Shown piece by piece: positions 56,995 through 62,327 of a stretch of DNA of 64,000 bases. The notes under the pieces are model-generated. The model was not told the origin of the DNA. It did not search any database and saw only the letters and a list, made by a program, of their open reading frames with translations. The number at the start of each line of letters is the position of its first letter. Within the stretch, counting starts at the first letter, position 1. Source of the DNA: Betaproteobacteria bacterium (GTDB lineage: Bacteria; Pseudomonadota; Gammaproteobacteria; Burkholderiales; Burkholderiaceae_C); contig JBBINW010000009.1 in NCBI GenBank assembly GCA_037443665.1, positions 6,182 through 70,181 of the forward strand, written 5' to 3'. The position numbers were made by a program, and so were the translations under genes.

Positions 56995-57528
56995 TCACCG
57001 GCCGCGTCGCACCCGCAGCAGTTCGTCCAGGATCAGGCAGGCCGCACCCAGCGTGATCGCGCTGTCGGCGAGGTTGAAAGCTGGGAAGTAGCCGCCCTCG
57101 AACAGCGGTGAAAGGAAGCGGAAGTGGAACTGCAGGAAATCGACCACGTAGCCGTGGAGCAGGCGGTCGAGCACGTTGCCCAGCGCGCCGCCCATGATCA
57201 TGCTGACCGCGAAGCAGAACAGCTTCTGCGTCGGGTGTTTGCGGATCATCCAGACGATGAAGCCCGACGCCGCCAGCCCGAGCGCGGTGAAGGCCCAGCG
57301 CTGCCAGCCCGAGGCGCCGGCCATGAACGAGAACGCGGCGCCGCGGTTGTGGGCCCGCACGAGGCTGAAGAAGTGCGTCACCGAGCGCACCTCGCCGAGC
57401 GAGAGCGCGGCCACGACCATCGTCTTGGCGACTTGGTCGGCCAGCACCACCATGGCCGACAGGCCCAGCCACAGCCACAGGCCGGGGCCGCCGCCGGCGC
57501 CGCGGCCCGCACCCCCACGCGCGGCCAT
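56995..57528 (-). CDS. lspA: Lipoprotein signal peptidase II
   Basis: [30 protein letters not shown]. Confidence 0.95.
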
Positions 57529-57530
57529 GC

Positions 57531-60395
57531 TCAGGCCACCCGGCGCGTCTCGCCGGCGCCGTAGAGGTTGCTGGTGCAGCGCCGGCACAGCCCGGGGTGC
57601 GCTGGGTCGTGGCCGACGTCGTCGCGCCAGTGCCAGCAGCGCTCGCACTTGACGGCGCCGCTGGCCTTCACCGTGACGCCCAGCGCATCGCCGGCGCACA
57701 GCGTGGCGCGCGAGGTGATGAGCACGAACTTGAGGTCGTCGCCCAGCGATTCGAGCAGCGCGTGGTCTTCGGCGCCGGCGGTGACCGTCACCTCGGCCTG
57801 TAGCGACGACCCGAGGCCGCCGGCGGCGCGCACGGCCTCGATCTCCTTGTTGACCGCGTCGCGCAGCTCGCGCAGGCGCGCCCAGCGGGCCAGCAGCGCG
57901 ACCGAATCCGTGCCCTGCGTGTCGAAGCGTACGAAGGTCTCGGTGAAGATCGTGCCCGAGAAGCCGGGCTGTCCACCGGCGAAGACCTGCCACGCCTCCT
58001 CGGCCGTGAAGCTGAGGAACGGCGCCATCCAGCGCAGCATCGCGTGCGTGATCCGCGCCAGCGCCGTCTGCGCGCTGCGCCGCGCGTGCGAGTCCGGGGC
58101 GGTGGTGTAGAGCCGGTCCTTCAGCACGTCGAGGTAGAACGCGCCCAGATCCTCGGCGCAGAACACCTGCAGCTTTGCAACCACGGGATGGAACTCGTAG
58201 ACGTCGTAGTGCCTCAGCATCTCGGCCTGCAGTTCGGCGGTGCGCGCCAGCGCCCAGCGGTCGATCTCGAGCATCTCGGCCACCGGCACGGCGTTCTTCG
58301 CGGCGTCGAAATCCGAGGTGTTGGCGAGCAGGAAGCGAAGCGTGTTGCGGATCCTGCGGTAGCTGTCCACCACGCGGGCGAGGATCTTGTCGTCGATGCT
58401 CAGGTCGCCCGAGTAGTCGGTGGCCGCGCACCACAGGCGGATGATCTCGGCACCGAGCTGGCTCGTGACGGTGCGCATCTCGACGAAGTTGCCGAGCGAC
58501 TTGCTCATCTTGCGGCCGGCGCCGTCGACCGCGAAGCCGTGGGTCAGCAGGCCGCGGTAGGGCGCGTGGCCCTCGATCGCGCAGCCGATCAGCAGCGACG
58601 AGTGGAACCAGCCGCGGTGCTGGTCGTGACCCTCGAGGTAGAGGTCCGCCTCCGGGCCGGTCGCGTGATGGCCCGGGTTGCCTGGCGGCCCTTCGTGCGA
58701 GCCGCGCAGCACGTGGCTGAAGGTCGAGCCGGAGTCGAACCAGACGTCGAGGATGTCGTTGCTCTTGGCGTAGTGCTCGGCGTCGGCGCCCAGCCACGCG
58801 GCCGGGTCGAGCCGGCTCCAGGCCTCGACGCCGCCTTGCTCGACCAGCACCGCAGCGCGTTCCATCAGCGCCAGCGTGTCGGGGTGCAGCTCGCCCGTCG
58901 CCTTGTGCAGGAGGAAAGGCAGCGGCACGCCCCAGCTGCGCTGGCGGCTGATGCACCAGTCGGGGCGGCCGGCGATCATGTCGCGCAGGCGGGCCTTGCC
59001 GTTGTCGGGGTAGAAGCCGGTCTGCTCGATCGCCGCCAGCGCCGTGCGGCGAAGCGTGTCCGGCGCCTTGTCGGTGGTGAAGACGCCCTCGCCCTCGTCC
59101 ATGCGCACGAACCACTGCGCGGCGGCGCGATAGACCACCGGCGTCTTGTGGCGCCAGCAATGCGGATAGCTGTGCAGCAGTTCGCCCTGGGCCAGCAGGC
59201 GGCCGGCGTCGGCGAGCGCCTTCACGATCGCCGGCTGCGCCTTCCAGATGTGCTGGCCGCCGAACAGCGGCAGCGCCGCTTCGTAGGCGCCGTGGCCCTG
59301 CACCGGGTTGAGGATCTCGTCGGCCTTCATCCCGTGGGCCAGGCACGAGTTGAAGTCATCGACGCCGTAGGCCGGCGACGAGTGGACGACGCCGGTGCCG
59401 TCCTCGGCGGTGGCGTAGTCGGCCAGGTAGACGGGGGCGACGCGGTCGTAGCCTCCGTCGACGGCGGCCAGCGGATGGCGGAACCTCAGGCCTGCGAGCA
59501 TTTCGCCCCGGGCCGTCGCGATCACGCGGCCCTGCAGGCCCCAGCGCGCGAGGCAGGCCTCAACCAGCGCCTCGGCGACCAGCATCACGCCACGCTCGGT
59601 CTCGACCAGCGCGTAGGGCAGGGTGGGGTTGAGGTTGAGCGCCTGGTTGGCCGGCAGAGTCCACGGCGTCGTGGTCCAGATCACCGCGAAGGCGTCGCGC
59701 GGCAGCGACGCGAGGCCGAACGCCGCTGCCAGCTGGTCGGGCTCGGCGGCGTCGAAGGCGACATCGACGGCGATGCTCTTCTTGTCGGCGTATTCGATCT
59801 CGAACTCGGCCAGCGAGGAGCCGCAGTCGAAGCACCAATAGACTGGCTTCTGGCCGCGATAGACGAAGCCGCGCTCGACCAGGCGCTTGAGCACGCGGAT
59901 CTCGCCGGCCTCGTTCGCGAAGTCCATCGTGCGGTAGATGTGATCCCAGTCGCCGAGCACACCCAGGCGCTTGAAGTCCGCCATCTGCTGCGCGATCTGC
60001 TCGCTGGCGTAGGCGCGCGACAGCGCCTGCACCTTCTCGCGCGGCAGGCCGCGGCCATGGTCTTTCTCGATCTGGTTCTCGATCGGCAGGCCGTGGCAGT
60101 CCCAGCCCGGCACGTAGCGGGCGTCGAAGCCGGCCAGCTGGCGGCTCTTGACAACCATGTCCTTCAGAATCTTGTTGACCGCATGCCCGATGTGCAGCTT
60201 GCCGTTGGCGTAGGGCGGACCGTCGTGCAGCACGAACAGCGGCGCGCCTCGGCGCGCAGCGCGAAGCCGCTGATACCGGCCGCCGTCGTCCCAGCCCTTG
60301 ATCCAGCCCGGCTCGCGCTTGGGCAGGTCGCCGCGCATCGGAAACGGCGTGTCGGGGAGGTTGAGGGTGCTGCGGTAGTCAGGCGTGGTGCTCAT
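57531..60395 (-). CDS. ileS: Isoleucine-tRNA ligase (type 1)
   Basis: [34 protein letters not shown]-terminal CERCW zinc finger. Confidence 0.98.
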
Positions 60396-60529
60396 CTGGT
60401 GCTCGTCGGGTGCGCAGGGCTTGGCGCTGGCGCAGGCCGCTGCGCGGCGGCTTGCAGGTCGGTCCAGGGGGCGCTTTGCGGGGTGCTCGTCACCGCAGGT
60501 GCCGGCGCGGCACCTGCGGCGGGCCCGCG

Positions 60530-60649
60530 TCAGGCGACCGACCGGATAATTCGGTCGCGCGTGGCCTGCCGCCGCGTGGTGGCGTGCCAACGCAAGGTCA
60601 TCCGGCAGGGGGCCAGGCGAGTCGGGGACGGCTGCCACATCAGTTGCAT
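60530..60649 (-). CDS. Candidate ileS leader peptide, 39 aa ([39 protein letters not shown])
   Basis: TAAAAT (60657-62)-N7-ATG; tandem ATT ATC codons in a hairpin loop; 12-bp hairpin after the stop. Confidence 0.5.
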
Positions 60650-60780
60650 CCCGCCGATTTTAGCGACCGCCCGCGGGCGACGACGCCGATCGCCGGCAGT
60701 GGCGGTCCGCGCAGGTCACGTGGTTACCATGCAGCATCGCGTGCGGGCGTCGTTCGCGCCCGCCTTGCCGGAGATCCCAG

Positions 60781-61734
60781 ATGCAGAAAGCCTTCGCCTC
60801 CCAGGCCGACCTCGAAGCCAAGCAGGTCAGCTTCACGCAGCTGTCCGCCAACGCCTACGCCTACACCGCCGAGGGCGACCCCAACACCGGCGTGATCATC
60901 GGCGACGACGCGGTGATGGTCATCGACACCCAGGCCACGCCGGTGATGGCGCAGGACGTGATCCGGCGCATCCGCGAGGTCACCGACAAACCGATCGACT
61001 ACGTCGTGCTCAGCCATTACCACGCCGTGCGCGTGCTCGGCGCCTCGGCGTACGGCGCGCGCCACGTCGTCGCCAGTCGCGACACCTACGACCTGATCGT
61101 CGAGCGCGGTGAAGCCGACAAGGCGAGCGAGATCGCCCGCTTTCCGCGCCTGTTCCAGGCCGTCGAGTCGGTGCCGCCGGGCATGACCTGGCCGACCATC
61201 ACCTTCAGCGGCGCGATGTCGATCTGGCTCGGCAAGCTCGAGGTGCAGCTGCTGCAGCTCGGGCGCGGCCACACCAAGGGCGACACGGTGGGCTGGCTGC
61301 CGCAGCAGAAGATCCTGTTCTCTGGCGACCTGGTCGAGTTCGGCGCCACGCCCTATGCCGGCGACGCCTACTTCAAGGACTGGCCGCAGACGCTAGACCG
61401 GCTGGCGGCGCTGGCGCCGGCCAAGCTGGTGCCCGGCCGCGGCGCCGCGCTGACCACGCCCGAGGCCGTGGCTGCGGGGCTGGCCGGCACGCGCAGCTTC
61501 ATCGCGGACGTACGCGACAGCGTCGCCGCCGGCATCGCCGCCGGGAAGGACCTGAACGCGGTCTACAAGGAGACGATGGCCCGCCTGGCGCCGAAGTACG
61601 GGCAATGGGTGATCTTCCAGCACTGCATGCCGTTCGACGTCACGCGCTGCTACGACGAGCTCACGCAGTACCCCGACCCGCGCATCTGGACGGCGGAGCG
61701 CGACCGCCAGATGTGGCTGGCGCTGGAGTCCTGA
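60781..61734 (+). CDS. MBL-fold hydrolase with atypical metal motif
   Basis: EGDPNTGVIIGDD, SHYHAVR in place of HxHxDH, GRGHTKGD, SGDLVE, PGRG. Confidence 0.82.
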   Translation: MQKAFASQADLEAKQVSFTQLSANAYAYTAEGDPNTGVIIGDDAVMVIDTQATPVMAQDVIRRIREVTDKPIDYVVLSHYHAVRVLGASAYGARHVVASRDTYDLIVERGEADKASEIARFPRLFQAVESVPPGMTWPTITFSGAMSIWLGKLEVQLLQLGRGHTKGDTVGWLPQQKILFSGDLVEFGATPYAGDAYFKDWPQTLDRLAALAPAKLVPGRGAALTTPEAVAAGLAGTRSFIADVRDSVAAGIAAGKDLNAVYKETMARLAPKYGQWVIFQHCMPFDVTRCYDELTQYPDPRIWTAERDRQMWLALES

Positions 61735-61781
61735 ACCCTCCTGAACCCGATCGGACCCCCGACCCGCGAGGAGACGCCGCC

Positions 61782-62327
61782 GTGGCCATCGAACGCATCC
61801 ACCACGTCGCCTACCGCTGCCGCGACGCCCGTCAGACCGTGCTCTGGTACCGCGAGCACCTGGGCATGGAATTCGTGCTCGCGATCGCCGAGGACCAGGT
61901 GCCTTCGACGCACGCGCCCGACCCCTACATGCACGTGTTCCTCGATGCCGGCGGCGGCAATGTGCTGGCCTTCTTCGAGCTGCCGAACGCGCCTGCGATG
62001 GGGCGTGACGAGCACACACCCGATTGGGTGCAGCACATCGCGTTCAAGGTCGGCTCGGTCGACGAGCTGATGGCCACGAAGGCGCGGCTCGATGCGGCCG
62101 GGATCGCGGTGGTCGGGCCCACCGACCACACGATCTTCAGCTCGATCTACTTCTTCGACCCCAACGGCCACCGCGTCGAGTTGGCCGCCGACACCGCGAC
62201 GCCCGAGATGAATTCGCGGCTCGACGCCGTGAAGTGGGCGATGCTCGATGAATGGGCGCAGACGCGCCGCGCGCCGCGCCATGCGGCGTGGATGCACGAG
62301 AAGGAGTTCGCTGCCGACGCGAAGTGA
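61782..62327 (+). CDS. VOC/glyoxalase family protein
   Basis: GAGGAG RBS; IHHVAY, QHIAF, YFFDPNGHRVEL. Confidence 0.85.
   Translation: MAIERIHHVAYRCRDARQTVLWYREHLGMEFVLAIAEDQVPSTHAPDPYMHVFLDAGGGNVLAFFELPNAPAMGRDEHTPDWVQHIAFKVGSVDELMATKARLDAAGIAVVGPTDHTIFSSIYFFDPNGHRVELAADTATPEMNSRLDAVKWAMLDEWAQTRRAPRHAAWMHEKEFAADAK

Follow-up and report, generated by a model that had tools for sequence, protein, structure and literature searches.

A candidate leader peptide conserved upstream of ileS in Burkholderiales, with a probable role in sensing Ile-tRNA supply

We examined the region upstream of ileS, the gene for isoleucyl-tRNA synthetase (IleRS), in a 64,000-nucleotide (nt) stretch of contig JBBINW010000009.1 from a Betaproteobacteria bacterium (assembly GCA_037443665.1), a Burkholderiales organism similar to Rubrivivax, Caldimonas and Ideonella. 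We refer to this whole stretch as the window. A gap of 385 nt separates ileS (ATG at 60395, minus strand) from a divergent MBL-fold gene (ATG at 60781, plus strand), and it contains a 39-codon open reading frame (ORF) whose C-terminal end recurs in front of ileS in well over 100 related Burkholderiales. These are environmental bacteria of Sphaerotilaceae- and Comamonadaceae-type genera (for example, Rubrivivax, Ideonella, Aquabacterium, Caldimonas, Variovorax and Acidovorax). The region is probably the promoter and 5′ leader of an ileS-lspA operon, although we hold this with moderate confidence. At a similar level of confidence, we favor a reading in which the ORF encodes an arrest-type leader peptide that would sense the supply of Ile-tRNA at a slow CGA-AUU codon pair, with its output on Rho-dependent termination. 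The ORF and the parts on which this reading turns are as follows, in coordinates of the window:

60530-60649, minus strand: leader ORF, 39 codons followed by TGA (60532-60530); defined by translation, with the frame kept in 64 of 64 relatives.
60548-60589, minus strand: conserved peptide-coding core, from W21 to residue 34; defined by a blastn block and codon-position entropy.
60545-60553, minus strand: proposed sensing site, CGA (Arg33) and ATT (Ile34), then ATC (Ile35) in the window's clade; 68 instances.

An initial annotation, made from the letters of the window, had proposed a leaderless ORF that senses Ile through tandem codons set in a cascade of hairpins. Every sequence feature that it listed is present on the minus strand where it was placed. 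Translation confirms the 39-codon ORF with its stop at 60530, and a TAAAAT box stands 7 nt ahead of the ATG (60649-60647). The only two Ile codons, ATT (60550-60548) and ATC (60547-60545), lie in the loop of the first of two perfect hairpins, both of which exist, and a C-rich stretch precedes the ileS ATG.

The intergenic region of the window was compared by blastn with the ileS loci of the 80 closest species-level genomes, in which the N terminus of IleS is 74-87% identical. The whole comparison took in about 170 relatives, with loci numbered L001-L200, and the surroundings of ribF were judged within the 2.5 kb fetched for each locus. As an independent test, metagenome contigs were scanned with the bare 21-nt DNA motif, which occurs once in the window against zero expected; the scan yielded at least 120 contigs.

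About 70 of the 80 ileS loci share with the window a block (window 60598-60548) that is always found 70-200 nt 5′ of ileS. The aligned block reads CGN CAG ACN ACN CGC GAY CGA ATT, or R-Q-T-T-R-D-R-I, and the conserved peptide end is [W/G]HAATRRQ(T/A)TRDR-I, with changes chiefly at third codon positions. Over the last nine codons, entropy at codon positions 1, 2 and 3 is 0.27, 0.19 and 0.72 across all aligned loci and 0.31, 0.21 and 0.75 in the stand-alone ORFs only. Since the variation sits at third positions, it points to a translated ORF under purifying selection at the protein level, and this comparative evidence indicates that the leader ORF is real and translated. Among 62 unique stand-alone peptides, five residues (R27, Q28, R31, R33 and I34) never change and three more (T25, T30 and D32) show conservation of 90% or above, while the N-terminal two thirds vary freely in both sequence and length. 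Free-standing ORFs in the relatives run from 24 to 45 codons. After the motif's Ile, translation would stop at once or continue for 1-9 further codons; the commonest stand-alone form, which is that of the window, has five more codons and then TGA. The leader stop codon is not fixed and may be TGA, TAG or TAA.

At the end of the motif, conservation reaches the codons themselves. A codon-free search with the peptide pattern Q-x-x-R-x-R-X returned 68 real instances, all ending in Ile (67 ATT, 1 ATC) and all with CGA as the preceding Arg codon. These are rare choices in the window, where CGA makes up 4.2% of Arg codons and ATT 2.8% of Ile codons. The motif's first Arg, by contrast, takes all four CGN codons. 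Ile is nearly confined to this site: 57 of the 62 unique stand-alone peptides have none ahead of the motif, 40 contain a single Ile, and 17, including those of the window's clade, contain two, the second directly after the first. A run of cognate codons, the basis of the earlier model, is therefore not what the relatives preserve; they preserve RRQ(T/A)TRDR-I together with the rare pair CGA-ATT. The sequence comparison strongly supports the Ile codon as the critical position of the leader ORF, and we infer from it that the leader would sense Ile.

The start of the ORF is as regular as its end. Two features define it in the window:

60657-60662, minus strand: predicted -10 hexamer TAAAAT of the leader-ileS-lspA transcript; identified from the sequence and from TA[G/A/C]AAT in relatives.
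60650-60656, minus strand: spacer cggcggg, 7 nt and G+C-rich, between the box and the ATG; no space for a Shine-Dalgarno (SD) sequence.

A TA[G/A/C]AAT hexamer is located 5-8 nt (mostly 7) 5′ of the ATG in all stand-alone loci except two. When the hexamer followed by 5-9 nt and ATG was sought in any frame, each of the 64 unique cases (64 of 64) shared the motif's frame and had no stop before it, even though the distance from box and ATG to the motif varies between 24 and 40 codons among them. Because the box lies 5-8 nt before the ATG and leaves no room for an SD sequence, the mRNA is probably leaderless, with a predicted transcription start at or beside the A of the leader ATG. The leaderless geometry first noticed in the window is thus, as far as comparison goes, a conserved property of the stand-alone relatives. 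In these relatives, the box has a G+C content of 26% and the stretch from box to ATG one of 82%; over the ORF's first 30 nt the value is 49-69%, where the background is about 76%. The low value at the beginning of the ORF is what would be expected of a 5′ end kept unfolded. No conserved -35 element was found among the stand-alone relatives. A simple sigma-70 promoter and terminator scan made no call in the leader region; it missed the leader promoter because it needs a -35 element, and there is none here.

We also observed that the segment between box and start (60650-60656 in the window, and its equivalent in 64 relatives) is near-pure G+C and resembles the discriminator of stringently controlled promoters. 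By analogy, growth-rate or guanosine tetraphosphate (ppGpp) control of ileS transcription may operate on top of the leader.

The motif is not always free-standing. In about half of the loci, it forms the last nine residues of RibF, which ends ...RDRI-stop, beyond the FAD_syn and Flavokinase domains. In the other half, which includes the window, it ends a free-standing ORF, and ribF has a tail-less end 100-300 nt upstream, is split off by an inserted gene or is absent from the 2.5 kb; we found no ribF across the 64-kb window. The distance between motif and ileS stays within 69-220 nt whether ribF is fused, adjacent, separated by a gene or absent. Because the motif keeps its place before ileS through the rearrangement and even the absence of ribF, we conclude that the leader peptide travels with ileS and not with ribF. 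In the metagenomes, the motif lies 73-220 nt 5′ of ileS in 109 of 111 contigs with enough downstream sequence, among the matches listed. Two motif matches with no ileS after them (L116 and L149) encode the helix-turn-helix of a LacI-family regulator that reads QATRDRI (…IPQATRDRIHAAARELNYRPN…), from an organism of lower G+C content; the match in DNA sequence is a coincidence. Rhodoferax-type loci come in two kinds. In L052 and L076, RibF ends ...AARI-stop, a minimal version of the motif in which CGA ATT TGA is retained and the RRQTT part is missing; in L030, L041, L075 and L077, ribF ends 6-50 nt before ileS and we found no motif.

Where the motif is fused to RibF, the end of ribF appears to supply the promoter as well. 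The codons for Y-G-K/R-I/L in fused ribF are TAC GGT AAA/AGA/AAG ATC/CTC (for example, in L032 at about 2200-2215, L044, L056 and L074), and a TAnnnT hexamer (TAAAAT, TAAACT, TAGACT or similar) is present in 43 of 43 unique sequences of the fused form. An in-frame GTG follows 7 nt 3′ of this box, again in 43 of 43, and the next codon is GAA in 36 of them. At loci where ribF is separate, the corresponding site reads GGC CGC CTG/TGC: TAnnnT occurs in 0 of 34, GGC in 27 and GTG in 9. Since the -10 box is found only in fused ribF, it seems that rare codons write a promoter only where the genome needs one at that place. Fused ribF thus looks like a gene that holds an internal ileS promoter and, nested in its own frame, a leaderless ORF about 50 codons long, and we read the mini-ORF of the window as a derived, free-standing form.

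This relationship to RibF bears on two other explanations. The first is that the ORF has no function of its own and is open by chance: it would be either what is left of a decaying ribF 3′ end or part of an element that acts as DNA or RNA, for instance a site bound by a protein or a GATAAT promoter serving the MBL gene from the plus strand. In its favor, relatives have a RibF tail homologous to the motif, GATAAT does occur on the plus strand at 60545-60550, and the region is covered by no database family or Rfam model. However, the stand-alone copies show third-position periodicity when taken alone, and a remnant would hardly be in frame with its own -10 box and ATG in 64 of 64 cases. The element also persists at loci without ribF, and the motif is unchanged at loci that lack a divergent gene. 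In place of ATTATC, most relatives read ATTATT, ATTTGA or ATTCAG, so the plus-strand GATAAT is not conserved. The fallback offered in the initial annotation, that GATAAT is merely the MBL promoter, fails for the further reason that in most relatives the motif lies inside ribF or next to unrelated genes. We consider a non-functional ORF very improbable.

The second explanation accepts that the ORF is translated but denies that it is an Ile sensor. Translation could serve constitutively to recruit ribosomes to the 5′ end, protecting the transcript from Rho or nucleases or supporting ileS translation, or the peptide could act in trans as a small protein or as the tail of RibF. Conservation of the amino-acid sequence, which is unusual for leaders that count codons, fits this idea, as do the covalent linkage to RibF in many genomes and the presence of merely one or two Ile codons. 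Yet the peptide follows ileS rather than ribF through several independent rearrangements, and its N-terminal two thirds are free to vary. A protein function would also leave the codon-level fixation of CGA-ATT unexplained, and the synthetase encoded downstream is cognate to the sole hydrophobic residue that never varies. On balance, we find this explanation unlikely.

Between the leader ORF and ileS lies the segment through which we think the leader would act:

60396-60529, minus strand: untranslated spacer, 134 nt, C-rich and G-poor; candidate Rho loading region, identified by composition.

In the window, this spacer has a C content of 0.46 and a G content of 0.33, giving a skew, (C-G)/(C+G), of +0.17. 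Among the window's upstream regions (mean for other genes, 0.01 ± 0.11), such a value ranks no higher than the top tenth, and it is convincing only because the relatives share it: the mean is +0.23 over the spacers of 68 relatives, compared to +0.05 in ileS coding sequence, and 65 of the 68 exceed +0.1. The spacer is 69-220 nt long in all loci and never falls below 69 nt. At its far end, no SD sequence was detected for ileS: 0 of 157 unique starts pair with the anti-SD at -6 kcal/mol or better, compared to 30-43% of other ORFs in the window. A long spacer that is C-rich, untranslated and free of an SD sequence makes Rho-dependent termination the most plausible output of the leader, as judged from composition.

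The start of ileS itself (60383-60407) lies in an 11-nt tandem duplication, which on the minus strand reads GACGAGCACCA GATGAGCACCA. A third similar copy, GACGAGCACCCCGC, at 60478-60491, directly follows the 12-bp hairpin described below and was not seen in relatives.

A different output would be the one envisioned in classical attenuators, in which the position of the ribosome selects between hairpins and, here, the 12-bp hairpin would terminate transcription or sequester the ileS start. The window has two hairpins suggestively placed for such a switch:

60534-60558, minus strand: hairpin 1, a perfect 8-bp stem (GCGACCGA/TCGGTCGC) with a 9-nt loop that holds both Ile codons; local, not conserved.
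60493-60519, minus strand: hairpin 2, a perfect 12-bp G+C-rich stem with a 3-nt loop and no U-tract, 11 nt past the leader stop; unique in the window.

Several measurements lean in this direction. The whole leader folds at z = -2.0, and the first 45 nt past the leader stop fold at z = -2.7, a value due to hairpin 2. A second sequence that could pair perfectly with the 3′ arm of hairpin 1 over 8 nt is present 71 nt downstream (repeat I7). Among relatives, spacers often hold some stable hairpin and are somewhat over-structured (mean z = -1.0). In 26 of 168 loci, almost exclusively of Variovorax type, a hairpin precedes a T-rich tail, but these are too few for an intrinsic terminator to be a general feature.

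The remaining tests argue against a structural switch. Hairpin 1 alone has z = -1.66 in the window and is equaled by 7% of shuffles, so it is not clearly above chance; as a conserved feature it was rejected, because the RDR codons pair with the 27 nt after them no better than chance over 68 loci (mean z = -0.13). Hairpin 2 was considered as a repeated element similar to repetitive extragenic palindromic (REP) sequences and discarded, as it is unique in the window. It has no counterpart conserved in place or sequence in the closest clade, and the stable hairpins in relatives' spacers are likewise conserved in neither. A terminator scan of the window called nothing between the leader ORF and ileS, hairpin 2 included. 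Two further pairings were tried and rejected across relatives: that of the motif block with the spacer, equivalent to classical 1:2 pairing (mean z = +0.12), and that of the stall site with the ileS initiation region, as in a mycobacterial model (mean z = -0.16). When we aligned the closest clade, whose motif ends in RII, for covarying helices, only small subclade-specific hairpins around the stop codon appeared; sequence past the motif diverges too fast in this clade for a covariance model to be built. Finally, the stop follows directly after the Ile codon in most relatives, which places a stalled and a terminating ribosome 3 nt apart, too little for a switch based on position.

The initial annotation had named conservation of both frame and stems in the ileS upstream regions of relatives as a check. 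Frame and Ile codon are conserved and the stems are not, so that the hairpin cascade is specific to the window. Remodeling of hairpins by a stalled ribosome likewise found no footing, as neither terminator/antiterminator logic nor sequestration of a ribosome-binding site could be detected. We therefore regard a structure-switch attenuator as rather unlikely. The leader would work like a leader-peptide attenuator, but it fails the tests of a classical hairpin switch and appears to fit the arrest-peptide/Rho kind better.

One lineage may have its own arrangement. Variovorax-type spacers (L029, L032, L039, L044, L046, L054 and L074) have in common a conserved element that resembles a terminator, GCCGCCCTT...AGGGCGRACGGC and then a run of T. 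Its 3′ half doubles as the 5′ side of another hairpin, about 24 bp long, that closes 40-60 nt further downstream. This element may be a lineage-specific output module.

We propose the following sequence of events for the arrest-type leader. Transcription would start about 7 nt past the TAAAAT box, and a ribosome would translate the leader ORF from the very 5′ end of the message. In genomes with fused ribF, the internal -10 box and in-frame GTG would give an equivalent leaderless, nested ORF. By the time the ribosome reached the sensing site, roughly the last ten residues it had made would form the conserved arginine-rich nascent chain, ..TRRQ(T/A)TRDR. The rare Arg codon CGA would then occupy the P site and the rare Ile codon AUU the A site. 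CGA is read by I:A wobble and is decoded poorly, and AUU is read by G:U wobble. Elongation at this point would presumably be unusually slow and hence strongly dependent on Ile-tRNA(Ile), the product of IleRS. If charged tRNA(Ile) were scarce, through Ile starvation, low IleRS or an IleRS inhibitor, the ribosome would be parked at the end of the ORF. If it were ample, the ribosome would terminate and leave. In the least certain step, departure of the ribosome would let Rho end transcription prematurely, in the spacer or early in ileS, and a parked ribosome beside the Rho loading region would relieve this termination, as in the tna and speF leaders. Because the stop comes directly after the Ile codon in most relatives, the signal would be the dwell time of the ribosome rather than its position, as with TnaC.

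The resemblance to TnaC raises the question of what is sensed. An arrest peptide of the TnaC/SpeFL type could respond to isoleucine, a related metabolite or possibly an antibiotic bound in the exit tunnel, independently of tRNA charging. The conserved C terminus, a stall point at or beside the stop in most relatives and the long C-rich spacer that follows would all suit such a peptide. In addition, R-D-R fits the +X+ tripeptide pattern, which is known to arrest macrolide-carrying ribosomes (PMC12583479). Against a ligand sensor, induction of a synthetase by its own free amino acid has no obvious homeostatic logic, tRNA supply explains an invariant rare Ile codon in the A site more simply, and the stop is not fixed and is displaced by 1-9 codons in many versions. 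We judge a ligand sensor to be quite improbable and prefer the sensor of Ile-tRNA supply.

Several points nevertheless weigh against the Ile-tRNA reading and its Rho-dependent output. Both ORF and motif have been lost from the closest relative, L001 (IleS 87% identical; L001 2350-2500), which still has the TAAAAT box and a leader of extreme C content, so the ORF is dispensable in at least one lineage. One Ile codon is a weak sensor by classical standards, and we infer the sensitizing effect of CGA-AUU and the nascent chain from what is generally known about arrest peptides and about decoding by I:A wobble. A C-rich spacer is a matter of composition alone and does not prove a rut site; moreover, the excess of structure in spacers over shuffled controls noted above (mean z = -1.0) is less than ideal for Rho loading. 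In the window, 18 nt separate the Ile codons from the stop and 31 nt separate them from hairpin 2, and a ribosome parked at these codons would cover little of the spacer. The hairpin-plus-U-run elements of the Variovorax type mean that the output step may differ between lineages.

A bolder version of the proposal, which we offer tentatively and hold to be possible rather than probable, is that RRQ(T/A)TRDR-I is a new sequence-specific arrest module. The arginine-rich nascent chain and CGA in the P site would together turn a single rare AUU into a hypersensitive gauge of Ile-tRNA(Ile), and the module would control the synthetase. The free-standing and ribF-nested forms would be interchangeable, so that one DNA stretch could serve as enzyme tail, promoter and leader.

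The genes on both sides of the leader are consistent with their names. The two transcribed with it are predicted to be:

57531-60395, minus strand: ileS, isoleucyl-tRNA synthetase, 954 aa, the regulated gene; Pfam tRNA-synt_1, Anticodon_1 and zf-FPG_IleRS.
56995-57528, minus strand: lspA, signal peptidase II; TIGR00077, 121 bits against a cutoff of 74.

The N terminus of IleS aligns with those of the 80 relatives. lspA starts 2 nt past the ileS stop and is predicted to be co-transcribed with ileS as a second gene. On the other side of the gap, the divergent MBL-fold hydrolase (60781-61734, plus strand) has its best matches among SoxH-related 'quinoprotein relay system' zinc hydrolases and falls under every family cutoff. 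The ORF after it (61605-62327, plus strand) encodes a glyoxalase/VOC-fold protein; its longest frame shares 130 nt with the 3′ end of the MBL gene, and the true start is probably later.

The leader peptide family appears to be unannotated and undescribed. An Rfam scan of 60100-61000, with E values up to 10, gave only noise far below gathering scores and no T-box, and Pfam and NCBIfam contain no family for the leader peptide or for the RibF tail on its own. With a profile of 45 stand-alone peptides, about 46 small ORFs were found in a protein collection, all of them called 'hypothetical protein' or left unnamed (for example, in Ideonella livida and an Acidovorax strain). In the full-text literature searched, we found for Betaproteobacteria no ileS leader peptide, no report of ileS with Rho or bicyclomycin and no match to the peptide string.

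Among known systems, trpL, ilvL, ivbL, hisL and pheM resemble this leader in having a short ORF in the 5′ leader of an operon, a cognate codon and the ribosome as sensor of charged tRNA, and pheM-pheST is a precedent for a leader peptide on a synthetase gene. Unlike the trpL/pheM type, the ileS leader has one or two Ile codons rather than a run, conserves a specific peptide and a rare codon pair, has no detectable intrinsic terminator or alternative hairpins, would sit on a leaderless mRNA and is the tail of RibF in many genomes. TnaC, SpeFL and MgtL/MgtP are alike in their conserved C terminus, a stall near the end of the ORF and a long untranslated C-rich segment with no U-tract terminator. 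They have no sequence similarity to the ileS leader peptide, however, and a role for Rho here is predicted from composition. TnaC and SpeFL also sense free ligands and have SD-led ORFs, whereas the likely signal here is Ile-tRNA in the A site.

Leaderless short ORFs with polycysteine tracts in mycobacteria are a second point of comparison: pausing at their Cys codons reports supply to downstream genes (Canestrari et al., bioRxiv 10.1101/834739). Both kinds place a short ORF with cognate codons at the 5′ end of a transcript. The mycobacterial ORFs have tracts of Cys codons and unmask a sequestered ribosome-binding site, whereas the ileS leader has a single Ile codon, a conserved peptide and an ileS without an SD sequence. 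T-box leaders occur on ileS in Firmicutes and Actinobacteria and are translational in actinobacterial ileS (PMC1262725). Gene and signal, charging of tRNA(Ile), are the same, but a T-box is an untranslated RNA that binds tRNA, and here the conserved part is coding. Long ileS leaders are also on record in Alphaproteobacteria. Ribosome profiling in Caulobacter crescentus found a translated 'ileS leader CDS', CCNA_03934, which was used only as a control (PMC4117421), and in Methylorubrum extorquens the ileS transcription start was mapped 150 nt upstream, with a TAGAAG-N7-A geometry that matches the arrangement of the leader promoter here (PMC9320726). We liken these to the Burkholderiales leader by description, not by sequence, and both papers are without mechanism or regulation.

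To our knowledge, the control of synthetase genes in Gram-negative bacteria is understood in detail for only a few cases, namely thrS, pheST and the autoregulation of alaS, and ileS of Proteobacteria, whose product is the target of mupirocin, is not among them. If our reading is true, the ileS leader would show that a leader can sense with one codon in a conserved peptide context instead of a run of codons, that leaderless translation can be regulatory outside Actinobacteria and that a regulatory leader ORF can be nested in frame at the end of a preceding enzyme gene. The locus also illustrates that an ORF below the minimum length of an ORF list can rank among the best-conserved features of its surroundings.

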